32,000 bases of DNA from Alphaproteobacteria bacterium (GTDB taxonomy: Bacteria > Pseudomonadota > Alphaproteobacteria > Rs-D84). The notes below the pieces were generated by a model. The model did no database searches. It was not told the origin of the DNA and was given only the letters and a program-made list of their open reading frames with translations. This document shows, piece by piece, positions 5,859-21,602 of this stretch (the stretch's first letter is position 1; every line of letters begins with the position of its first letter). Location: NCBI GenBank assembly GCA_017475605.1, contig JAFVFD010000002.1:90001-122000 (forward strand), in the 5' to 3' direction. The position numbers and the translations under genes were made by a program.

Positions 5859-8519
5859 ATGAAAGAAAAACCACCACTTTCACCAGAACAAGATCGTGCG
5901 GCAAATCCGGCCAATAACATTTGGGTCCAGGCAAACGCAGGCACCGGTAAAACCAGCGTTTTGGTTGAACGGTTGTTGCGTATTTTGTTTCGAACCGATG
6001 ATATTGCGCATAATGGTATTTTGTGCCTTACCTATACCAAGGCGGGTGCCGGTGAAATGCGTAATCGTATTTTGAAATGGCTGCGTGAATGGGCGCTGGC
6101 ATCAGACGAAGAATTGGTAAAATTATTGCGTGATGTTGCGTTGCATAAACCCGCAACTGCCGCAGATATTGCCCATGCACGCGAGGTTTTCTTTTGGTAT
6201 ATTGATAATCCCGAAACACTTAAAATAAAAACCATTCACAGTTTTTGTGAAGAAATCTTACACCGATTTCCAATCGAGGCTGGCATTTCACCGGCATGGA
6301 CAATGGTTTTGGACGAAAACCAGCGTGTATTACAGTTAGAAGCTTTTGAACGGTTGTTAAGGGCCGGGGTGTTAGAGCCAGAAAAATACGGTCGCGTAGA
6401 AGGTGCGTTTGCGCGCCTTGTAAATGTATTAAGCGAGTATCGTTTGTCCGATTTTGTACGTGCTTTGGGTGGACAATACGAACATTTTTTCTTGGTTGAA
6501 GATGTGGAACGTTATCGCAAATACTTTGTTGATACGATTAAATATTTTCTAAATTTAAATACGGTTCCGCAATTAGAAAAACCGGCATCTGAACTTGAAG
6601 AAATTATTAAAAATACAGAAATCGAACAAAATAGCAGAAAAACACCGGCAGTGTACTTGTCTGATATAATAACATTAACCAAACAGTATATTGATAAAAC
6701 TATTGATTTTGATGAATATAAATATGCCTATTTATTAAAAACATCAGGAATGCCAAATGGCAAGTTGAAAAAACACGATTTTTTAATTGATGAAATGGAA
6801 CGTGTGTTTGCTGTTGACCAATACAATCAAAATATGGAGTTGTTTAATGATACAATGGCATTGTTTGATTTGTCGGCGGCATTTGCGACCATGTATCGTG
6901 GTATAAAACAACAGCGAAACTTGCTTGATTTTGAAGACTTGGTTTTATACACACGCAAATTATTTTCCAGGCCCGATGTTATGGGGTGGGTGCTGTCGCA
7001 ATTGGATGTATCGTTGTCGCATATCTTGGTTGATGAAGCCCAGGACACATCGCCACTGCATTGGGACGTTTTAACGATGATGCTGGGGGATTTCTTTGTG
7101 AACGGCGATACCAAATCTGATAAGCATTCTTTGTTTATTGTTGGTGATCCGAAACAAGCTATCTTTGGGTTCCAAGGTGCCGATTTCCATGCGTTTTCCA
7201 ACAGTTTTTCTGAAATTACACGACATATACAAAATAATTTACGCACGATTCAAGAAATCCCATTGGAACAAAGTTTTCGTTCGTTGTCGTCAATATTATA
7301 TGTGGTTGATGAATTCTTTAATGACGATGTTGTTAAACAAAAAACAGGTTTCCATAACAATTCCCATTTTTGCCATCGTAAAAAAGATGGTATGGGACTT
7401 GTTGAATTACACAGGTTGGTATCAAATGCCAGAACTGGGGCGACCGTTGATGGCTATATAGATATGATAGCCGATAAAATAAAATCAATGATAGATTCTG
7501 GCGAACGCAAGCCAAGTGATATTATGGTGCTGGTCCAACGAAGAAAACCATTGGCTAATTTATTGGTTACCGCGTTAAAGAAAAGGGACATAGATGTAGC
7601 AGGCAGCGATCGTATATATTTACCAATGTTTCCTGCGATACGCGATCTGATGAACCTGGTGCGATTTTGTATAAATACCGCCGACGATTATAGTTTGTGT
7701 TGTGTGTTAAAAAGTCCGATTTTCCGTTTGTCCGAAGCCGATATTTTTAATTTGTGTAAAATAAAAAACGATACAAATAATGCCAATAAAGACGGTCCAC
7801 AAATAACGGTTTTTGAGGTCTTGGGGAACACCCATCCGGATATCTATAATCGTTTAAAATCAATAACTGAAATGTCGTTGTTAGATGGTCCTTATACTTT
7901 CTTTTCAAGGATACTTGATTCGGGTGTGCGGCATGATTTTATATCGGCCCTGGGGCCCCAGGCAATTGATCCGTTGGAAGAGTTTATGACAATGTGTCTT
8001 TCTTACGAAAGAACCCAACCTGGTACCATGCGCCATTTTCTTAAATGGTTTGTTACGGGTGGTGCCGAAATAAAGCGCGATGTTGATGCGGCATCCGGGG
8101 TAAGAGTTGTTACCGCCCATGGAAGCAAGGGGCTTGAAGCACCAGTTGTGTTCCTTATTGATACAACAACACTGCCAAAACCAGAATCTGTTTTCCCAAT
8201 AACGCCGTCAATTATGCCGAAAAATGTGGCCGTTGACGAAAGTGTCCCAAGTCCCTGGATTTGGCAGGCGCACAAAACAACCAGCGAACAGGTCGGTGTT
8301 GCCAGCGATTTGCTTATGAATGATAAATTTGAAGAGTATTACCGGCTGTTATATGTTGCGATGACACGCGCACGTGATGAATTATATATTTATGGATACA
8401 GCAGATATAACGCAGCAAATGAAAAATCGTGGTATTCGTTATTGTGGGATAAATTAATAACAGTTGACGGCGCAACCGTCGTGGATGATGATACAATCAG
8501 GATAATACATGACAAATAA
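5859..8519 (+). CDS. addA: AddA-type UvrD/Rep superfamily-1 helicase (helicase portion of the double-strand-break repair helicase-nuclease AddA)
   Basis: AddA-type N-terminus QDRAANPANNIWVQANAGTGKTSVLVERLLRIL (Walker A). Motif II is VDEAQDTSP, motif III is VGDPKQAIFGFQGAD and motif IV is EQSFRS. Further motifs are VTAHGSKGLEAPVVFLID and RLLYVAMTRARDELYIYG. RBS AAGGG lies 7 nt upstream. The ORF ends at 8519 without a nuclease domain. Confidence 0.85.
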   Translation: MKEKPPLSPEQDRAANPANNIWVQANAGTGKTSVLVERLLRILFRTDDIAHNGILCLTYTKAGAGEMRNRILKWLREWALASDEELVKLLRDVALHKPATAADIAHAREVFFWYIDNPETLKIKTIHSFCEEILHRFPIEAGISPAWTMVLDENQRVLQLEAFERLLRAGVLEPEKYGRVEGAFARLVNVLSEYRLSDFVRALGGQYEHFFLVEDVERYRKYFVDTIKYFLNLNTVPQLEKPASELEEIIKNTEIEQNSRKTPAVYLSDIITLTKQYIDKTIDFDEYKYAYLLKTSGMPNGKLKKHDFLIDEMERVFAVDQYNQNMELFNDTMALFDLSAAFATMYRGIKQQRNLLDFEDLVLYTRKLFSRPDVMGWVLSQLDVSLSHILVDEAQDTSPLHWDVLTMMLGDFFVNGDTKSDKHSLFIVGDPKQAIFGFQGADFHAFSNSFSEITRHIQNNLRTIQEIPLEQSFRSLSSILYVVDEFFNDDVVKQKTGFHNNSHFCHRKKDGMGLVELHRLVSNARTGATVDGYIDMIADKIKSMIDSGERKPSDIMVLVQRRKPLANLLVTALKKRDIDVAGSDRIYLPMFPAIRDLMNLVRFCINTADDYSLCCVLKSPIFRLSEADIFNLCKIKNDTNNANKDGPQITVFEVLGNTHPDIYNRLKSITEMSLLDGPYTFFSRILDSGVRHDFISALGPQAIDPLEEFMTMCLSYERTQPGTMRHFLKWFVTGGAEIKRDVDAASGVRVVTAHGSKGLEAPVVFLIDTTTLPKPESVFPITPSIMPKNVAVDESVPSPWIWQAHKTTSEQVGVASDLLMNDKFEEYYRLLYVAMTRARDELYIYGYSRYNAANEKSWYSLLWDKLITVDGATVVDDDTIRIIHDK

Positions 8520-8952
8520 ATTACGCGAATTTTTAAGTGAATACGATGCGCAAAAACATGCAACTGATGTTGGTACACAAATGCACGAAATGTTGCGTCG
8601 TATTCGCACACTGGATGATTGTGATAAAGTTGATTCTGAATTAAAATCGCACTTAAAATCTGTACCGGGACTAGATGTATTCTTTACAGAGTCTGCCCGA
8701 ACGGAAGTACCAATTGCGGGAATTGTAAACGGTGCCTTTGTTAGTCGCAGAATCGACAGGTTAATAGTTGATGACGAACACAAGATTGTTCGAATATTGG
8801 ACTATAAAACCGACGTTGATAAAACTGTTTATCGCGATAAATACAATTATCAATTGTCTGAATATGTCAAATTAATACGACAAATATATCCAGACTATCG
8901 CATTGAAAGCAGTATTTTATGGCTACACGATTGGGTGCTGGAAAAACTATAA
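8509..8952 (+). CDS. PD-(D/E)XK (RecB-family) nuclease domain protein, corresponding to the C-terminal nuclease domain of AddA as a separate ORF
   Basis: Nuclease motifs are GTQMHEMLRRI, EVPIAG....SRRIDRLIVDD, VRILDYKTD and YNYQLSEYVKLIRQIYP (the D / D-x-K / Q..Y pattern of RecB-family nucleases). The ATG at 8509 overlaps the helicase ORF by 11 nt in the +1 frame. AGGA at 8499-8502 sits 6 nt upstream. Confidence 0.75.
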   Translation: MTNKLREFLSEYDAQKHATDVGTQMHEMLRRIRTLDDCDKVDSELKSHLKSVPGLDVFFTESARTEVPIAGIVNGAFVSRRIDRLIVDDEHKIVRILDYKTDVDKTVYRDKYNYQLSEYVKLIRQIYPDYRIESSILWLHDWVLEKL

Positions 8953-8994
8953 AAACCCTTGAATTGTGTGCGTCTGTTTGAGTATAATTTCGGC

Positions 8995-10644
8995 ATGTTA
9001 CGTGCGTTAAATATATCTAATATTGTATTGATTGAAAAACTGAATCTTGAATTCGGCGCGGGGCTTAATATTTTAACAGGGGAAACGGGCGCGGGGAAAA
9101 GTATTTTGTTGGATGCGCTATCGTTGGCCCTGGGGGCGCGGTCGGATGTGGGGTTGGTGCGGTCTGGGTGTGAAATGGCTTCTGTGGTGGCGGAATTTGA
9201 TTCCACACCAAGCGCTGTTCAATCTATTTTGGTTGAAAATGGTATTGATACGGGCGATGAATTGATTTTGCGCCGCACATTGTCCGCCGATGGCAAAAGT
9301 CGTGCATGGATAAACGATATTCCGGTTTCTGTACGCGTGTTACACGATGTTGGGGATGCATTGGTTGAAATTCATGGACAGTTTGCGAATCACCGTTTGT
9401 TGAACCAGGCGACGCATCGCGCGGCATTGGACGAATTTGCCATGGTTCATATTGATGGTTTTTCAGAATTACTTTCCGCCACACGCAACGCATATAATGA
9501 ATACCACGCCGTTGATTTAAAATTGCGCGATTTGCGTGAAACGGTTGCGCGTGCGGCTGACGAACGGGATTTTTTAGCGCATAATGTCGCGGAATTGCGC
9601 GCACTTGATGTACAGCCCGGGGAAGAGGCTGAATTGGCCGACAAACGTGCAACAATGATGAACGCGGAAAAGAACGCGGCAATTGTATCTGATGCGGCGA
9701 CCGCCATGGCACCGAATGGGAAATCATTGGATGCATTTGTGTTTGATGTCGCGCATATTCTGGAACGCATCAAGACGGAACCTAACCCATATGCCACGCA
9801 AATTGAACGGTTATACGAAGTGGCAGACAGTCTGGCGACTGTATCGGCGCAATTGAATCCCGATGATACAGATATATCAAGCATTGATGAAATAGAAGAA
9901 CGGCTTTTTGCGATACGTGCCGCCGCGCGCAAGCATCGTGTGCCTGCGGACGAATTGCCGCAAAAGCTGGAACAAATGGCGGCCCAATTGGATACGATTG
10001 ATAATTCGGATGCGTTGTTAAGCAAACTTACACAAGAGCAGGCCAATTTACGCAAAAATTTTGACGCGTGTGCGACAAAGTTAACAGCGGCGCGCATTGA
10101 TGCAGCCGATGTGTTAAGAACGCGCCTGCGGGCAGAATTGCCTGATTTAAAACTGGCTAATGCAGATTTTGTTGCAGAACGGGTGGAAACATCGCCGTCG
10201 GCGACGGGTGTTGACGATATAACATTTATGATTAAAACCAATCCGGGATCACCGTTTGCGCCATTACACAAATCTGCATCGGGTGGGGAATTGGCGCGTT
10301 TAATGCTGGCAATGCGGGTTGTGCTGATAAACGATAGCGATTCACATATATTTGTGTTTGATGAAATCGATACGGGAATCAGTGGTGCCACAGCATCGGC
10401 GGTTGGTGCCCGATTGAATCGACTGGCAACAACGTCGCAAACACTTGTTGTTACCCATTCCGCCCAGGTGGCCGGGTTTGCCGATCATCATTTCAAAATT
10501 GAAAAAAGTGTTGCGAATGATAAAACGACAACAACGGTTCGCGAAATAGTGGGCGATGAACGGGTAAACGAGGTTGCCCGAATAATAAGTGGCGCGGAAA
10601 TTACACCTGAATCAATTGCAACCGCTAAAACTCTGATAAAGTAA
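8995..10644 (+). CDS. recN: DNA repair protein RecN
   Basis: The start MLRALNISNIVLIEKLNLEFGAGLNILTGETGAGKSILLDAL (Walker A) is typical of RecN. A long central coiled coil follows. The C-terminal ABC signature and Walker B read ASGGELARLMLAM...IFVFDEIDTGISG, then TLVVTHSAQVA. The ATG at 8995 is preferred over the TTG at 8959. Confidence 0.95.
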   Translation: MLRALNISNIVLIEKLNLEFGAGLNILTGETGAGKSILLDALSLALGARSDVGLVRSGCEMASVVAEFDSTPSAVQSILVENGIDTGDELILRRTLSADGKSRAWINDIPVSVRVLHDVGDALVEIHGQFANHRLLNQATHRAALDEFAMVHIDGFSELLSATRNAYNEYHAVDLKLRDLRETVARAADERDFLAHNVAELRALDVQPGEEAELADKRATMMNAEKNAAIVSDAATAMAPNGKSLDAFVFDVAHILERIKTEPNPYATQIERLYEVADSLATVSAQLNPDDTDISSIDEIEERLFAIRAAARKHRVPADELPQKLEQMAAQLDTIDNSDALLSKLTQEQANLRKNFDACATKLTAARIDAADVLRTRLRAELPDLKLANADFVAERVETSPSATGVDDITFMIKTNPGSPFAPLHKSASGGELARLMLAMRVVLINDSDSHIFVFDEIDTGISGATASAVGARLNRLATTSQTLVVTHSAQVAGFADHHFKIEKSVANDKTTTTVREIVGDERVNEVARIISGAEITPESIATAKTLIK

Positions 10645-16260: not shown

Positions 16261-16724
16261 AAATTAATTTCCTTTTTTACCATATCAACGGACGCGCCAA
16301 TGAATGAAACATAATCACCGTTATCCAATTCAATAATATCACCGGCACCAAAGTTCTGAAAGCCCGCAACAACACCAATTTTTTTACCATCACGCAGGAC
16401 GGTAAATCCAATTAAATCTGCCTGGTAATATTCGTCTGACGAAAGTTCGGGCAGGGTGTCGCGGTCAATATAAAGTTCGGTTCCACGTAATGTTTCCGCG
16501 GCATTACGATTATCGAAGCCGGCAATGTGTGCGATAATTACAGTTGAATTCGGCACCACACGAACAAACTTAAAATCCGTTTCTTTGAACTTTGAACTTT
16601 GAACTTTGAAATCTCGAAAATCCGCCGGGTTTTCGCTAAATGTCTGAACGCGAACATCGCCCCGGATTCCCTGGGGCGCGACAATTTTACCAACCAAAAT
16701 TTTATCGCATGTATTCACGGACAT
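16257..16724 (-). CDS. rimM: 16S rRNA processing protein RimM
   Basis: ILVGKIVAPQGIRGDVRVQTFSENP is the RimM N-terminal beta-barrel signature. LPELSSDEYYQADLIGFTV..DGKKIGVV matches the PRC barrel. The start is ambiguous: ATG 16724, GTG 16718 or TTG 16697. Confidence 0.9.
   Translation of the reverse strand: MSVNTCDKILVGKIVAPQGIRGDVRVQTFSENPADFRDFKVQSSKFKETDFKFVRVVPNSTVIIAHIAGFDNRNAAETLRGTELYIDRDTLPELSSDEYYQADLIGFTVLRDGKKIGVVAGFQNFGAGDIIELDNGDYVSFIGASVDMVKKEINL
16583..16610. repeat. Perfect tandem heptanucleotide repeat (CTTTGAA)x4 inside rimM
   Basis: Direct reading shows CTTTGAA at 16583, 16590, 16597 and 16604. On the coding strand this is (TTCAAAG)x4, encoding FKVQSSKFK. Confidence 0.9.
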
Positions 16725-16950
16725 TTTTTGCTTTTAACAGAATAGTTTTGATTTCTTTTATGTAATTGTCGACGTTTAAATTGTTTTCAACCGCATATTC
16801 AATCAGTGTGTCAATGTTTTGAACATAACTGTCATAGACAATATCGCGTTGCTCTTTTGTTAAAAATCGTAAATGTGCAAAAACTTCACGATTCAAGAGA
16901 CGAACGCAATATTGTCTGGTGTGTTTGACTCTGTTACTTTCAATAAACAT
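16702..16950 (-). CDS. Hypothetical 82-aa protein inserted between rpsP and rimM
   Basis: The ATG overlaps the rpsP stop (TAATG at 16948-16952), and the 3' end overlaps the ATG-defined rimM start by 23 nt. The sequence looks helical (..TKEQRDIVYDSYVQNIDTLIEYAVENNLNVDNYIKEIKTILLKAK..). It has no KH-type GxxG motif and no recognised family. Confidence 0.5.
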   Translation of the reverse strand: MFIESNRVKHTRQYCVRLLNREVFAHLRFLTKEQRDIVYDSYVQNIDTLIEYAVENNLNVDNYIKEIKTILLKAKNVREYMR

Positions 16951-17399: not shown

Positions 17400-17548
17400 A
17401 TTTTTATCCTTTTTGTTTTTTGTGTTTATAAAAAACCTTTGCCCCAAAAGAAAACCGCCATCAAGAGCGAAAACTCGCCGGTTGATGTTCCACACGCATA
17501 CTGCGTACTGGGTTGATTTAAATGGCAATCTTTGGGATTTGCTGGGTA

Positions 17549-17577
17549 ATTATGTATTAAAAAATGCCGAAAGTCAA
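17549..17577 (-). promoter_or_regulatory. Candidate sigma70 promoter of the rpsP operon
   Basis: The minus strand reads TTGACT (17577-17572), a 17-nt spacer, then CATAAT (17554-17549). This leaves a leader of roughly 140 nt before the rpsP ATG. Confidence 0.45.
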
Positions 17578-17591
17578 ATAATTATTACTAT

Positions 17592-18191
17592 TTATCTGTG
17601 ATGCTGACGGTTTTTATAAAGCCATGGGTTCGGATTAAAGAAATTGAAGTGTCGTGGCCGATATCTCTTTTGCCCGTCTTGGTACGGACAGCACAGATTC
17701 AAATTTACACTGATGTTAAAGTTGTAATTCACACTATAAAGGATTTTATCGGCTTTCTTGTTATTACAAATTTTGTGTGCCGGTTGCATATTATCCAGTG
17801 TGCTTTGTCCGCCCAATGATTTAGGAAATTGGTGGTCCCAGGTAAACATATGTTTGGTCTGGGCATTGTCTTTCAATATTTGAGAATTAATTTGTATCGG
17901 TTGACCACACAATTTACAACATGGGTAAACTTCATAGTCCCCCATAAGCGCGAATATTTGTTTTACTTGTTTAGTAGACAATTTTTCATCTACATTATTG
18001 GCCTTGATTAGTTCATTTACTAATCGTTTAACAGTCTTTTTTATGTCTATATAAAGAAACAACGCACAGTCGTTTTTTGACTGTGCGTTGTTAGTTAGTA
18101 TCCCCAGCAGTTCTTTAAGATGTAACTTGTCCATTTTGTTAATCAGTTTAGATAGGTTGTGTAATGTTTGCCGAATTTCTAATTTCGTCAT
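17592..18191 (-). CDS. HNH endonuclease domain protein (HNH-1, 199 aa)
   Basis: The ATG at 18191 is preceded by a GGGGGAGA RBS. The HNH core (17754-17921) reads YPCCKLCGQPI...FTWDHQFPKSLGGQSTLDNMQPAHKICNNKKAD, giving CxxC, DH, N and H..CN..K. The N-terminal ~90 aa are helical and unassigned, and the C-terminal tail is basic/aromatic. Confidence 0.8.
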   Translation of the reverse strand: MTKLEIRQTLHNLSKLINKMDKLHLKELLGILTNNAQSKNDCALFLYIDIKKTVKRLVNELIKANNVDEKLSTKQVKQIFALMGDYEVYPCCKLCGQPIQINSQILKDNAQTKHMFTWDHQFPKSLGGQSTLDNMQPAHKICNNKKADKILYSVNYNFNISVNLNLCCPYQDGQKRYRPRHFNFFNPNPWLYKNRQHHR

Positions 18192-18238
18192 TATGAATTT
18201 CTCCCCCAAGTTAAATTGACAACAACTTCACAAAACCA

Positions 18239-18268
18239 ATTAGAGCAAAAAACACGTATCTGTGTCAA
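18239..18268 (-). promoter_or_regulatory. Candidate sigma70 promoter upstream of HNH-1
   Basis: The minus strand reads TTGACA (18268-18263), an 18-nt spacer, then TCTAAT (18244-18239). This is pattern match only. Confidence 0.35.
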
Positions 18269-18285
18269 TAGTGTTTTATATTGAA

Positions 18286-18846
18286 TCAGTATTGTTTATC
18301 CAGTTTGGTTATTATGTTTCGCGCATAATCAGACATATTTTGATTCATAAACTGTAAATATTGGTTGGCATTACCCGCGGCAACGGTTTTTGCGCGTTGT
18401 GTTGCGAAAAAACGCGAATTATACCCCAATTCCCATGCAAGTCTTGTGCGGTCTGCGTCCCACAGACATGCCGATACATAATCGGGCGCGACTAAATTAA
18501 ACGAATGGTTTTTGATTGCATACGCGATTGAATCACGGCTTTTTATATCAATATTGCCTATTTCGTCCATAACGCGCAAAGCCATTGGAACCGCGTTTGC
18601 GCCATGTTGTGTATCATCGCCATCGGTTACACGCGCCATATCATGAAATGCACATGCCAAAACAACATTTTTTGGTGATTTACCAAGGTTTAATGCGTAA
18701 TCAATTCCACGAAACACCACCGCAGCGGTATGCGTATAAAGCCCATGATAACCATATTTTTGTTGAATTGCGTTTTGTGAAACAATTGGCATTATATCCA
18801 TTAAATACCAATCAAATGTTGATGAAATTAAATTACTCTCTGCCAT
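18286..18846 (-). CDS. HD-domain metal-dependent phosphohydrolase family protein (186 aa)
   Basis: The start is at MAESNL (ATG 18846), 12 nt downstream of the tRNA-Gly 3' end. The H...HD...D pattern appears as LYTHTAAVVFRG....LACAFHDMARVTDGDDTQHGANA and LWDADRTRLAW. The first 24 aa of the track ORF (MVARQLPKLKTRVRFPSPAPRLKT) are the translated tRNA and are excluded. Confidence 0.75.
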   Translation of the reverse strand: MAESNLISSTFDWYLMDIMPIVSQNAIQQKYGYHGLYTHTAAVVFRGIDYALNLGKSPKNVVLACAFHDMARVTDGDDTQHGANAVPMALRVMDEIGNIDIKSRDSIAYAIKNHSFNLVAPDYVSACLWDADRTRLAWELGYNSRFFATQRAKTVAAGNANQYLQFMNQNMSDYARNIITKLDKQY

Positions 18847-18858
18847 CGTCTTCAATCT

Positions 18859-18932
18859 TGGTGCGGGCGAAGGGAATCGAACCCTCGTCTTCAGCTTGGG
18901 AAGCTGACGTGCTACCATTATACCACGCCCGC
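18859..18932 (-). tRNA. tRNA-Gly (anticodon CCC), CCA-encoded
   Basis: The minus strand reads GCGGGCGTGGTATAATGGTAGCACGTCAGCTTCCCAAGCTGAAGACGAGGGTTCGATTCCCTTCGCCCGCACCA. The 7-bp acceptor stem is GCGGGCG/CGCCCGC. The anticodon stem is TCAGC/GCTGA with loop TTCCCAA. The T arm is GAGGG-TTCGATT-CCCTT. It is 74 nt long and closely resembles the E. coli tRNA-Gly(CCC) sequence as I recall it. Confidence 0.93.
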
Positions 18933-18943
18933 AAAACCTTACG

Positions 18944-18972
18944 ATTCTATATCAGACCGCAATAAATGTCCA
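18944..18972 (-). promoter_or_regulatory. Candidate sigma70 promoter for tRNA-Gly
   Basis: The minus strand reads TGGACA (18972-18967), a 17-nt spacer, then TAGAAT (18949-18944). The tRNA 5' end is 11 nt downstream of the -10 element. The promoter lies in the 51-nt gap between the HNH-2 stop codon and the tRNA. Confidence 0.5.
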
Positions 18973-18983
18973 GTACAAAGATT

Positions 18984-19493
18984 TTATCTTGCCTTGCCCT
19001 GACGAACAATGGAATAGCGACACCCATGAAATTCATCAATGCGTTTACATTTGCGGTTCAAATCATCAACGTCGTGCCCATTGACACTTTCGTCGCGCAA
19101 CGGTCTTTTGTACGCGCGTCGTTTCTTTTGATTCTTTTTGGGCAACAATTGTGTTTCTGAATCCGGTTGATTTGGCATTGTACAACCTTTTTCAAAATTA
19201 CATTTCCCATGCATTGGTTGCAGATTTTTGATGTCGTCTGTGCCGCCCTTGGAACGCGGAATGGTATGATCGATAGTTAATTCATCCACGGTATAAATAG
19301 GTTTTTTACAAAATGGACATTCTGGATAAGCACCGGCCGATATCGCGATACTAAAGACTTTTCTTAATGTTTGAACGCCATAATATTCGACTTTTTTTAG
19401 ATATGTCAGTTGTTCGTATTGCGATTTACTCAACACACACTGACAATTGCGTTGTAAAAATCTGATAATATGCTTTACTCCTTTGTCATCCAT
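18984..19493 (-). CDS. HNH endonuclease domain protein (HNH-2, 169 aa)
   Basis: A GGGAGA RBS lies 8 nt upstream of the ATG at 19493. The HNH core (19188-19319) reads YPECPFCKKPI...LTIDHTIPRSKGGTDDIKNLQPMHGKCNFEKG. The C-terminal tail is basic (KKNQKKRRAYKRPLR). The core aligns with HNH-1 as YP.C..C..PI...DH..P.S.GG....N.QP.H..CN..K. Confidence 0.8.
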   Translation of the reverse strand: MDDKGVKHIIRFLQRNCQCVLSKSQYEQLTYLKKVEYYGVQTLRKVFSIAISAGAYPECPFCKKPIYTVDELTIDHTIPRSKGGTDDIKNLQPMHGKCNFEKGCTMPNQPDSETQLLPKKNQKKRRAYKRPLRDESVNGHDVDDLNRKCKRIDEFHGCRYSIVRQGKAR

Positions 19494-19516
19494 ATTATTA
19501 TCTCCCGTTTTTATAC

Positions 19517-20359
19517 CTAGTGTTGTTTCTCTTTGTTTTTTAATTGTTGTATTACTTCGCCTATGGGGCGGTTGTGTATTGCCGACCCGCGAACGTTATT
19601 AAGGCGCAAAACATCATTACTGTCAATCATAACACAATCGCCATAAACATCTGCTTTGCCGGTTAATTCAAACATCCCCAGTTTGTTGGCGCGCGCACGT
19701 CCCGTATTTGCCACGCTTTGTTTAAAGTTATAATACAGTGGGTACAAAGATTGTCCGTCGGTTAACAAAATAGAATCATCTTGTCTTGTGCGCGAATACG
19801 GACGAATACCATGGGTTAATAATGCGCTGTATAAATCATAAACCGCATGTGTTGAGTTTTTATGAATACCCTGGATTGTCAAAGCAAGACAAAAACCCAA
19901 TTCTGAATCGCGAACAACATCATTAATGATATTTGCAACTGCGCCTAAATTATTATGGAAACGGTCAACCGAAATATCCATCGCGATTAATTTGCCGGTA
20001 TTATACGCAACAGATTCTATATCATAAAAAATCTTGTCCTTTAATGCCTTGTCGTTGCCCCATATGCCGTTGGTTTTTAATATCGGCAACATATTTGCAT
20101 CAATGGCCATTTTAAGACATTCTGGAATATATTTTTGTTCGCCATGGTAATAGGGGGCCATCACTTCGCCACCAGTAAACACAAGCGAATCATATTTTTC
20201 AATCGGCAACGCATTAAATTCATCCAGATACTTTTTCATCTTGTCTAAACTCATCAATCGTGGCGACTGGCTTGGTCCAGAATTTTCACAACAATGCCGA
20301 CATTGTAGATTACACCAATTAGTGATTTTAAACGCAAGATTTGTTTTCGTACCGGACAT
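19517..20359 (-). CDS. Radical SAM enzyme (280 aa, single-cluster type, no SPASM/twitch motif seen)
   Basis: The motif CNLQCRHC (CX3CX2C, nt 20291-20314) lies at aa 16-23 after FKITNW. VFTGGEV is the GGE SAM-binding motif, with later KTNG and DISVD strands. There are only 7 Cys in total and no second Cys cluster. The start is 5 nt after the LysM gene stop, with no obvious SD. Confidence 0.85.
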   Translation of the reverse strand: MSGTKTNLAFKITNWCNLQCRHCCENSGPSQSPRLMSLDKMKKYLDEFNALPIEKYDSLVFTGGEVMAPYYHGEQKYIPECLKMAIDANMLPILKTNGIWGNDKALKDKIFYDIESVAYNTGKLIAMDISVDRFHNNLGAVANIINDVVRDSELGFCLALTIQGIHKNSTHAVYDLYSALLTHGIRPYSRTRQDDSILLTDGQSLYPLYYNFKQSVANTGRARANKLGMFELTGKADVYGDCVMIDSNDVLRLNNVRGSAIHNRPIGEVIQQLKNKEKQH

Positions 20360-20364
20360 TTGTG

Positions 20365-21504
20365 TTATTTACTGTTTACAGGAATCTGTAATTTCTGTTT
20401 CGGGAAAATTAAATCTGGATTTTCGATATTGTTTTTATCGGCGATAATGCTGAACAATATACCGCGACGCATAAAGTTTCGCGCAATAATCCACAAACAA
20501 TCGCCACGACGCACCGTATAAAATGTATCTTCGTCCCCGGTCATTTCAGGCATTGTAAATGTGTGATCTATGGACGAAACGGTTGTGCCATCGCCGTCGT
20601 GCAGGCGAACAGATAATTTATATTCTTTGCCACTTTCTAGTTTACCAATATCCGCACCCAAACCAAAATGGCGATAATCTGAAACATGTGCATAACCCAT
20701 ATATGTATCGTTTAACCATAACGATACACGCAAACGTGGCATCGCATCACCAGTTACAACGATGCGCCCATTGTCCAGGTAATCTATTTTTGACACATTT
20801 AAATCGCCTTCGCGTAATGTGGTTGGGGCCTGTAATAATGTGCTGCCTTTTTTAGTCATTAACAGTGATATGCTGTTTTCGTGTCCATGTTCAGAAATAT
20901 ATAAAAAAACTTTGTCTGATGATTTTGTGGATGTGTCCACGCCAATCAAAGACAAAGTATAATTACCGGCGGGTAATGGTTTCGTTGGGGCATACACAAA
21001 TTCACCATCGCCGTTTGTTTGTTCTGTCGCAACAACCTTGCCATTTATTGCGATGGATATTTTTTGGTTTGGTGCCCATCGTCCCGCGACAACTATATTT
21101 CCATCAGGCTGAATCCGCACGACATCAAATGATGGCGCATCCTTTTCGGACATAACCCGCGTAACCGAATCTGGCACAACCGGAACAATCACTATGCGTT
21201 GTGGTGTGCTGGTGCGTAGAAACATTACCCATATTGCAATCAAAAGGACGATTATTGCGCACAGAATAGGGAACCAAAACGCACGTAATATGCCATGCGA
21301 TTTTTTTTCTTGTTTCTTTTGTGCAACAACCGTTTTTGTTTCTTGCTTTTTTTCGGATGGGCGCGCAAATATATTAAGTGTTTTCAAAAATCGGCGCGCG
21401 TATGAACGGCGGTTTTCCAACCAATCGTTTTGTTGGGCAATTGCGTTATCAATCATGTCGTCTGTGGAACGTTTTGTTTTACCCATTGTGTTTTTGTTTG
21501 ACAT
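20365..21504 (-). CDS. LysM peptidoglycan-binding domain protein with an N-terminal membrane anchor
   Basis: The ATG at 21504 is preceded by AGGAG and is preferred over 21534. The TM helix is ILRAFWFPILCAIIVLLIAIWVMFL. Beta-rich repeats follow. The C-terminal LysM reads YTVRRGDCLWIIARNFMRRGILFSIIADKNNIENPDLIFPKQKLQIP. Confidence 0.85.
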   Translation of the reverse strand: MSNKNTMGKTKRSTDDMIDNAIAQQNDWLENRRSYARRFLKTLNIFARPSEKKQETKTVVAQKKQEKKSHGILRAFWFPILCAIIVLLIAIWVMFLRTSTPQRIVIVPVVPDSVTRVMSEKDAPSFDVVRIQPDGNIVVAGRWAPNQKISIAINGKVVATEQTNGDGEFVYAPTKPLPAGNYTLSLIGVDTSTKSSDKVFLYISEHGHENSISLLMTKKGSTLLQAPTTLREGDLNVSKIDYLDNGRIVVTGDAMPRLRVSLWLNDTYMGYAHVSDYRHFGLGADIGKLESGKEYKLSVRLHDGDGTTVSSIDHTFTMPEMTGDEDTFYTVRRGDCLWIIARNFMRRGILFSIIADKNNIENPDLIFPKQKLQIPVNSK

Positions 21505-21602
21505 AAAAAACTCCTGATACTGAACATTGGACAAAATACTACAAAAAGTTGTTCTTTGTCAATATATTTTATGATATAATATGGCGGAAAAGTGGGGAAA
21601 AT

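Follow-up and report, generated by a model that had tools for sequence, protein, structure and literature searches.

A run of radical SAM, HNH, tRNA-Gly and HD genes between a LysM gene and the rpsP operon of an Rs-D84 alphaproteobacterium: probably independent genes juxtaposed in a variable interval

This study describes a run of five elements on the minus strand of a 32,000-nt stretch of DNA (the window) from an alphaproteobacterium of the order Rs-D84 (assembly GCA_017475605.1, contig JAFVFD010000002.1, positions 90,001 to 122,000), namely genes for a radical SAM enzyme (rSAM), a first HNH nuclease (HNH1), a tRNA-Gly(CCC), an HD-domain phosphohydrolase (HD), and a second HNH nuclease (HNH2). 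The run is flanked by a gene for a LysM-domain membrane protein (hereafter LysM) and by the operon rpsP (ribosomal protein S16)-orf82-rimM-trmD-rplS (Table 1). Comparison with related loci indicated that the region probably consists of independent genes that were juxtaposed in a variable interval anchored by the tRNA gene, rather than of one system. The window belongs to Candidatus Enterousia, a gut alphaproteobacterium with <1 Mb of genome. Enterousia, a member of the uncultured order Rs-D84 and of animal-gut origin, has genomes of ~0.75-1.0 Mb (PMC12306168), and its genomes of <1 Mb are in the process of reduction (PMC12306168).

Table 1. Elements of the LysM-to-rpsP region and its two anchors in the window, in the order of transcription.
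Feature	Position	Strand	Evidence and remarks
LysM-domain membrane protein gene	20365..21534	-	PF01476 E 9e-11; probable start ATG 21504; upstream anchor
rSAM, 280 aa, CNLQCRHC and FTGGE	19517..20359	-	PF04055 30.0 bits vs 29.5, N-terminal half only
HNH1, 169 aa, 23 nt past rSAM	18984..19493	-	PF01844 E 6e-12 (45.9 bits); phrog_9645 E 1e-15
tRNA-Gly promoter, TGGACA-17-TAGAAT	18944..18972	-	conserved upstream of the tRNA, also in empty loci L058, L071, L081
tRNA-Gly(CCC), CCA encoded	18859..18932	-	ARAGORN; Rfam 67.6 bits
HD phosphohydrolase, 186 aa, 12 nt past tRNA	18286..18846	-	PF01966 26.6 bits vs 22
Promoter-like site TTGACA-18-TCTAAT, part of the HNH2 insertion	18239..18268	-	HNH2-bearing loci only; consensus scan gave no call
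HNH2, 199 aa from ATG; open reading frame reaches TTG 18209	17592..18191	-	PF01844 E 2e-8 (34.6 bits)
14-bp inverted repeat and T-run within the HNH2 coding sequence	18058..18092	-	core invariant in DNA among HNH2 homologues
rpsP promoter TTGACT-17-CATAAT (17549-17577) and ~125-nt structured 5' leader	17400..17577	-	downstream anchor

An alignment of LysM orthologues was scanned against one genome per GTDB species, and the best 80 of the 218 relatives found were kept; about one third of these belonged to Candidatus Enterousia and the remainder were unclassified Alphaproteobacteria or Rickettsiales gut metagenome-assembled genomes. The positions of LysM, rSAM, HNH, HD, tRNA and S16 were mapped in 105 related loci, which are denoted by L-numbers. 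Gene-association statistics were calculated from 65 usable species-level loci and the lengths of the LysM-to-rpsP interval from 62 loci. The relative L011, 95-98% identical to the window, served as reference for ratios of nonsynonymous to synonymous substitution rates (dN/dS). Curated score cut-offs were 29.5 bits for PF04055, 21.4 for PF01844, 22 for PF01966, 300 for TIGR04078, and 180 for NF038283.

Judged from the existence of orthologues and from dN/dS ratios of 0.06-0.24 (rSAM 0.24, HNH1 0.06, HD 0.08, HNH2 0.12), the four proteins are real genes under purifying selection. LysM was 54-99% identical across every related locus. The interval between LysM and rpsP had a median length of 2,273 nt, the extremes being 387 and 5,682 nt. 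Its minimal form, present in L058, L071, L081, L064, L029 and L089, was composed of the LysM stop, a GC-rich hairpin with a T-run, TGGACA-N17-TATAGAAT, tRNA-Gly(CCC), and the rpsP promoter, and on this comparison LysM and rpsP were ancestrally separated by a terminator, a promoter and tRNA-Gly(CCC) only. At occupied sites an accessory gene started 0-37 nt past the LysM stop and the hairpin was missing. Each accessory gene kept its own fixed slot in the interval, and 10 of the 16 possible combinations of the four protein genes were seen, from all four to none (Table 2). The presence of rSAM was independent of that of HNH (counts [[8,11],[20,26]], odds ratio 0.95, p=1). Where a locus had both, rSAM came first in the near clade, whereas HNH came first in seven more distant species. 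Because of these combinations, the odds ratio near one and the two gene orders, an obligate multi-gene system is excluded.

Table 2. Combinations of accessory genes (presence, +; absence, -; in the order rSAM, HNH1, HD, HNH2).
Loci	Combination
Window / L011	++++
L013	+++-
L106	++-+
L007, L021	++--
L017, L018, L022	-++-
L102	-+-+
L019, L024	-+--
L105	---+
L016	+---
L058, L071, L081	----

All five elements were found where an initial annotation of the window, made from its sequence, had placed them, and its suggestion that they need not form one operon held: the tRNA has its own promoter, the first of two candidates named by that annotation, which is conserved and present even without accessory genes; HNH2 has its own promoter-like site; and for rSAM and HNH1, placed directly behind the LysM stop, no separate conserved promoter was seen. 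The second candidate, the promoter-like TTGACA-18-TCTAAT, did travel with the HNH2 insertion, although a consensus scan gave no call for it. The impression that the HNH genes are AT-rich was borne out weakly for HNH2 (GC content 0.357 vs 0.423 for the window) and not for HNH1 (0.396), which does not differ from rSAM (0.393) and lies near LysM (0.415). The GC content at third codon positions of the four accessory genes (0.33-0.39) was inside or slightly under the host range.

The rSAM family was small, with 25 clusters (90% identity) in a set of 5.8 billion proteins, and was, among the loci examined, confined to Enterousia-like genomes. An exhaustive profile search retrieved ~20 full-length representatives, after which scores dropped sharply to relatives of 316-336 aa. 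The residues C16, C20, C23 and G63-G64-E65 were invariant in 24 family members, and the alignment contained no invariant or near-invariant cysteine outside the radical-SAM motif; C243, in a GDC(V/L)xID motif, was present in 20 of the 24 and replaced by Ser or Val in the others. The rSAM profile matched YydG over residues 16-177 (E 1e-13), with the NGxWG and ISxDExH motifs in common. The structure predicted by AlphaFold2 (pLDDT 87.5) was matched by Foldseek to the peptide epimerase EpeE with E 4e-11 (TM 0.55) and to viperin with E 5e-6. The score for the epimerase model TIGR04078 was 42.6 bits vs the cut-off of 300 and covered only residues 10-148.

Neither a precursor peptide nor a protease or ABC transporter was found near rSAM in the window or the related loci, and the gaps in the window (5 nt to the LysM stop, 23 nt to HNH1) held no small open reading frame (ORF), nor was there a terminator between LysM and rSAM. 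The wider relatives of 316-336 aa, which also had no C-terminal Cys motif, stood alone among housekeeping genes (tadA-like, infC, gpsA, parB), and no conserved partner and no cluster for a ribosomally synthesized and post-translationally modified peptide (RiPP) was present in the neighborhoods checked. No family member was retrieved from the viral contigs of IMG/VR when these were scanned with the rSAM alignment. The best guess for rSAM is a stand-alone, dispensable enzyme that abstracts hydrogen from a peptide or protein encoded elsewhere.

Its position relative to LysM was constant, the start lying 0-15 nt past the LysM stop or 2-15 nt past an intervening HNH gene. Among 29 distinct loci with both genes, always on the same strand, rSAM followed LysM directly in 21, one HNH gene intervened in seven, and rSAM was displaced in L087. 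Since the LysM terminator of the empty sites is missing, rSAM is most likely read through from LysM. This adjacency could alternatively mean that rSAM is a dedicated partner of LysM or the envelope, for example by epimerizing the LysM protein or a peptidoglycan-related peptide. In favor of such a partnership are the 21 of 29 loci with rSAM 0-15 nt past the LysM stop on the same strand, a duplicated 3' fragment of LysM upstream of the displaced rSAM of L087, and the action of its nearest relative EpeE on peptide C-alpha atoms (PMC13012085). Against it, LysM is kept without rSAM in 46 of 65 species, the HNH genes use the same position, so that the slot may merely give free transcription, and the wider rSAM relatives are not beside LysM genes. 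A column-by-column scan of LysM for association with rSAM presence, performed for LysM as a candidate substrate, gave no tracking residue, the best column (14/28 vs 3/49) being a clade effect, and this candidate was rejected. We regard a dedicated LysM partnership as quite unlikely.

The LysM fragment of L087 (8785-8897) consisted of two pieces, 60-78% identical over 18-20 aa, directly upstream of the rSAM gene displaced ~1.9 kb from LysM, and resembles a recombination scar at the LysM stop. In L074 pieces of an rSAM pseudogene were present (8951-9438), and L036 carried tandem rSAM paralogues (7131-8797).

The rSAM protein was less conserved than LysM in all 406 locus pairs (Spearman 0.55), with rSAM/LysM identities of 95/99, 65/88, 54/79, and 35-42/54-66%. 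For L088 and L077, where LysM was 93% identical and rSAM just 54%, the contrast suggests paralogue sorting. At least four rSAM losses were counted in the near clade. The history of rSAM fits fast vertical evolution with repeated loss.

Two further genes, c4 and c8, neither of which is present in the window, were associated with rSAM in other species. For c4 the odds ratio was 9.5 (p=0.001, 65 loci), and c8 was present in the interval of 7 of 19 loci with rSAM vs 0 of 46 without and only with rSAM or an rSAM pseudogene; these values are inflated by phylogenetic non-independence, the loci with rSAM and c4 or c8 being phylogenetically clustered. The c4 proteins (189-460 aa; L002 8849-9418, L075 7970-8596, L087 9839-11017, and 16 other loci) were encoded 2-9 nt past rSAM in 11 species and were Cys-rich, with a varying number of RxxYYxxNxE-type repeats at the N-terminus and, at the C-terminus, a conserved domain with four Cys (CPxF...C...CPIC...CP), and gave weak PHROG matches to function-unassigned families only. 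The c8 proteins (573-580 aa; L075 8601-10343, L030 8010-9740, and five other loci) had a conserved HENMH and were related to dipeptidyl peptidase III (DPP III, M49) peptidases (PDB 6eom, E 3e-24). As a DPP III-like peptidase, probably housekeeping, c8 was rejected as a RiPP protease.

Both HNH1 and HNH2 had an intact HNH motif (CxxC...DH...N...H...C), and their best matches were phage PHROGs annotated as HNH endonuclease, of which many families were matched. In a neighbor-joining tree of 37 HNH proteins three clades matched the slots, namely HNH2, HNH1, and a LysM-proximal HNHa of distant species. The HNH1 slot was between LysM or rSAM and the tRNA promoter, and HNH1 and HNHa were always directly past the LysM stop or past rSAM. 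HNH2 together with its TTGACA-18-TCTAAT site formed an insertion of ~720 nt, the downstream edge of which abutted the rpsP promoter at its invariant -35 region, ATTTGACTTT. Its homologues (59-96% identity) always occupied this same slot, those at 59-85% with different neighbors. An HNH2 orthologue was absent from all 80 species-representative loci and present in four metagenomic lineages spanning LysM identities of 60-99%.

The presence of HNH2 was linked to the adjacent rpsP promoter. All five distinct HNH2-bearing loci, one of them a 96%-identical near-duplicate of the window, carried the AATAAnTATTTGACTTT...TACATAAT variant, which resembles distant-clade alleles and was found in none of the seven HNH2-less near-clade loci; six of these seven carried CGGGTAATAAT and L007 carried GGTAAATAAT. 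This split cut across host relatedness. Exchange of the whole allele, as in co-conversion, would be a simpler reading than independent deletions, because such deletions are not expected to regenerate the same alternative allele. The HNH absences were clean and remnants were not seen. Frameshifted HNH genes were present in L028 and L076 (~7200-7460), and, together with the rSAM paralogues of L036 and the rSAM pieces of L074, point to duplication and decay of accessory genes.

A tblastn search with rSAM and HNH2 against 50,697 phage records returned matches to the HNH core (46% over 63 aa) and one weak match to the rSAM core; with phage matches at the level of the core only and no rSAM family member in IMG/VR, a phage origin was rejected. 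For HNH1 and HNH2 we favor persistence as resident homing-type selfish elements, with cleavage and homing as predicted activities.

The inverted repeat within the HNH2 coding sequence was perfect over 14 bp and followed by TTTCTTT, and its core AACGCACAG...CTGTGCGTT with the T-run was invariant at the DNA level. The core was kept across HNH2 homologues of 59-96% protein identity, with other synonymous sites saturated. The predicted hairpin could be an internal attenuator or terminator, or a recognition site.

The adjacency of rSAM and HNH1 (c4 elsewhere) might instead reflect a two-component module for nucleic-acid modification and restriction or defense, in which rSAM would modify self nucleic acid or produce a nucleotide analogue, the nuclease would attack non-self, and HD and HNH2 would be optional. 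The packing of rSAM and HNH is indeed tight (23 nt in the window, 2-15 nt elsewhere), an HNH or c4 gene adjoins rSAM in 14 of its 19 loci (odds ratio 3.3, p=0.056), the evolution of rSAM is fast (35-65% identity vs 54-88% for LysM), the patchy distribution is typical for defense genes, and the rSAM core has weak matches to the prokaryotic viperin pVip. On the other side, rSAM and HNH are statistically independent, each is found alone and both orders occur; HNH1 was retained in eight near-clade lineages that lost rSAM; the pVip score was 25 vs 180 bits, and EpeE was far better matched than viperin by sequence and fold; the interval contains no methyltransferase or other self-protection gene, and no PADLOC system was matched; and the wider rSAM relatives stand alone, the family itself not being found on viral contigs. 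Such a module is in our view very unlikely. We give similarly little credence to a broader version, in which the EpeE-like rSAM is the core of an undescribed Enterousia system at the tail of the LysM operon, either targeting nucleic acids in defense with HNH1 or the zinc-finger-type c4, or acting as a cluster-less epimerase of a protein or peptidoglycan peptide; if such an rSAM-centered system were true, the repeated loss and fast evolution of rSAM would signify an arms race and not decay.

Among the proposals of the initial annotation, the modification/restriction and nucleotide-targeting modules are thus not supported, the genes assorting independently, HD homologues occurring at unrelated loci, no PADLOC system being matched, and the nearest relative of rSAM being the peptide epimerase EpeE/YydG and not viperin. 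Its third proposal, selfish HNH genes beside conserved genes with rSAM and HD unrelated, was the best fit. Purely vertical conservation at the locus, which it had named as a finding that would speak against a cassette, was observed in part: the divergence of each gene tracks the host, but none is universally present.

The HD family comprised at least 199 clusters (45-100% identity), with H34, H39, H68-D69, H81, H114 and D132 invariant in 37 sequences, and no NCBIfam equivalog was matched. The predicted structure (AlphaFold2, pLDDT 95.2) was all-helical with 2pq7 as best fold match. Elsewhere HD was located after lpxD, or between a resolvase and gdhA-dnaK, and no HNH, rSAM or tRNA was nearby at the other loci examined. 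The tRNA and HD as a unit were rejected, HD homologues elsewhere having no adjoining tRNA. Because 12-13 nt separate the start of HD from the 3' end of the tRNA (window, L013, L017), it is probably co-transcribed with the tRNA from the tRNA promoter here. For HD, the function of an ordinary nucleotide (pyro)phosphohydrolase is the most likely, and its place in the interval, in one subclade, a matter of chance.

Several observations weigh against the reading of the region as juxtaposed independent genes with selfish HNH elements. HNH1 was fixed in 13 of 13 near-clade lineages and its tree mirrored host relatedness; the dN of HNH2 tracked that of LysM, and its dS equaled that of the flanking core genes, dS being saturated beyond the closest pair. 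By the same comparison, with the same saturation, no recent transfer of HNH2, HNH1 or rSAM was detected. For the HNH genes, horizontal movement is thus a conjecture, and a long vertical residence with many losses is possible. Purifying selection on all four genes in a genome of <1 Mb suggests some host benefit. In the near clade every rSAM gene was followed by HNH1 at a constant 15-23 nt, and rSAM may have partners in c4 or c8.

In another reading the four would be ordinary lineage-specific host genes, the nucleases domesticated, that were inherited strictly vertically and lost at differing rates during genome reduction, without homing. The divergence of rSAM, HNH1, HD and HNH2 scales with that of the host and no pair exceeds its LysM similarity, the HNH1 tree resembles host relatedness, dN/dS is 0.06-0.24 and the third-position GC content is host-like, and Enterousia genomes are <1 Mb and reducing (PMC12306168). 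Strict vertical descent would nevertheless require loss of HNH2 in all 80 species representatives and in at least seven near-clade lineages. Allele exchange fits better with the same alternative rpsP promoter variant in six of seven HNH2-less near-clade lineages, the absences are clean and without remnants, and homing endonuclease genes classically show such slot-specific insertion at an invariant sequence, with degenerate copies. We therefore consider purely vertical host genes unlikely.

In the preferred reading, that of independent genes, four accessory genes would have settled independently between LysM and the rpsP operon, each in its own slot: (i) rSAM would replace the LysM terminator and be transcribed by read-through from LysM, its EpeE-like core without auxiliary Fe-S cluster presumably abstracting hydrogen from a peptide or protein substrate encoded elsewhere, (ii) HNH1, free-standing and fixed in the near clade, would occupy the stretch from LysM/rSAM to the tRNA promoter, (iii) HD would lie behind the tRNA and be expressed probably from the tRNA promoter, and (iv) HNH2 with its promoter-like site would be an insertion at the -35 edge of the rpsP promoter. 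HNH1 and HNH2 would persist as resident homing-type selfish elements capable of cleavage and homing.

The suggestive run of rSAM, nuclease and HD genes would thus be a coincidence of neighbors and not a new defense system. New are a small, orphan rSAM family related to the epipeptide epimerase EpeE, without auxiliary cluster or RiPP context, and slot-specific free-standing HNH genes that persist under purifying selection in bacterial genomes of <1 Mb; with HNH2 linked to an rpsP promoter allele, these may be a case of homing-type elements on a chromosome that is reduced and symbiont-like. In addition, strains or species of Candidatus Enterousia could be told apart by their LysM-to-rpsP interval, which could also act as a hot spot for recombination.

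Further features of the interval and its flank were observed in the related loci. The tRNA-Gly(CCC) gene was present in nearly all of them, in an orientation relative to LysM and rpsP that varied between species, and housekeeping genes (gdhA, phosphoglucomutase, a PEMT-like methyltransferase) also entered the interval; because of these flips and entries the interval appears to be a rearrangement hot spot. In two lineages the slot between tRNA and rpsP was filled by a repeat protein of ~1,150 aa (L007 9634-13101, also L021) with units of the type DLDFS..V..L.L...DL.NV.SIKLNP, which resemble leucine-rich or pentapeptide-like repeats; no family match was obtained for it. A free-standing GIY-YIG protein of 82 aa adjoined tRNA-Gly(CCC) in L002 (11012-11260), with a HipA/HipB-like pair downstream, and represents one more selfish-type gene of this variable region, in another species. 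The 5' leader of rpsP was near-invariant over its ~125 nt in 10 Enterousia loci, and RNAalifold predicted 30 pairs, seven of them with compensatory changes; there was no Rfam match at the gathering threshold, and an undescribed leader or attenuator of the S16 operon may be present here. An ORF of 82 aa (16702-16950, minus strand) between rpsP and rimM begins at the rpsP stop and was conserved in related loci at 33-98% identity whether rSAM was present or absent, without a family match in Pfam, NCBIfam or PHROGs.

Among known systems, the best relative of rSAM in both sequence and structure was EpeE/YydG of Bacillus subtilis (TIGR04078; PDB 8ai1-8ai6). The two have the CX3CX2C cluster, GGE, NGxWG and (I/L)SxDE(F/Y)H in common, at an identity of only 18-20% and with 280 aa for rSAM vs 319-344 aa for EpeE. 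EpeE, which acts on peptide C-alpha atoms, has Cys223 as its donor of hydrogen and, in its T-SPASM domain, a second, auxiliary [4Fe-4S] cluster (PMC13012085), whereas rSAM, having no conserved C-terminal cysteines, would be devoid of this auxiliary cluster. The partners of the EpeE operon, i.e. precursor peptide, protease and ABC transporter, were not near rSAM.

The pVip enzymes (NF038283, PADLOC PDLC02903/4) are likewise radical-SAM proteins of similar size without a SPASM domain, and rSAM matched their core weakly (E 1e-6 to 7e-6, residues 9-106 only, 25.4 bits vs 180). Its fold match to viperin was ~100,000-fold weaker than that to EpeE, and a kinase or nucleotide-binding context, another difference from pVip, was not present at rSAM. 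PADLOC-DB 2.0 returned no system match for the four proteins, only generic HNH/REase_II/Cas9-HNH and pVip-core matches, and for the other interval genes of the relatives one marginal match (PtuB, E 0.003, to an HNHa); the window interval held no methyltransferase or other self-protection gene. HD shares with small HD hydrolases (uncharacterized 2pq7, Escherichia coli YedJ 3gw7, B. subtilis YpgQ 5dqv, and YqeK 8wmy) an all-helical fold, a size of ~190 aa and the invariant H...HD...H...D, although the matches were weak (TM 0.45-0.62, best Foldseek E 3e-3, profile E 5e-3).

HNH1 and HNH2 were compared with the free-standing HNH homing genes of phages (PHROG 9645, 338, 5718). Unlike these, they are chromosomal genes of a reduced bacterial genome and belong to neither a phage nor an intron, they diverge in step with the host with no recent transfer detected, and HNH1 is fixed in its clade. 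Like the phage genes, they are small single-domain proteins with an intact HNH motif, they occupy fixed intergenic slots at invariant host sequence with degenerate copies in relatives, and HNH2 is patchily distributed together with a linked flanking variant.

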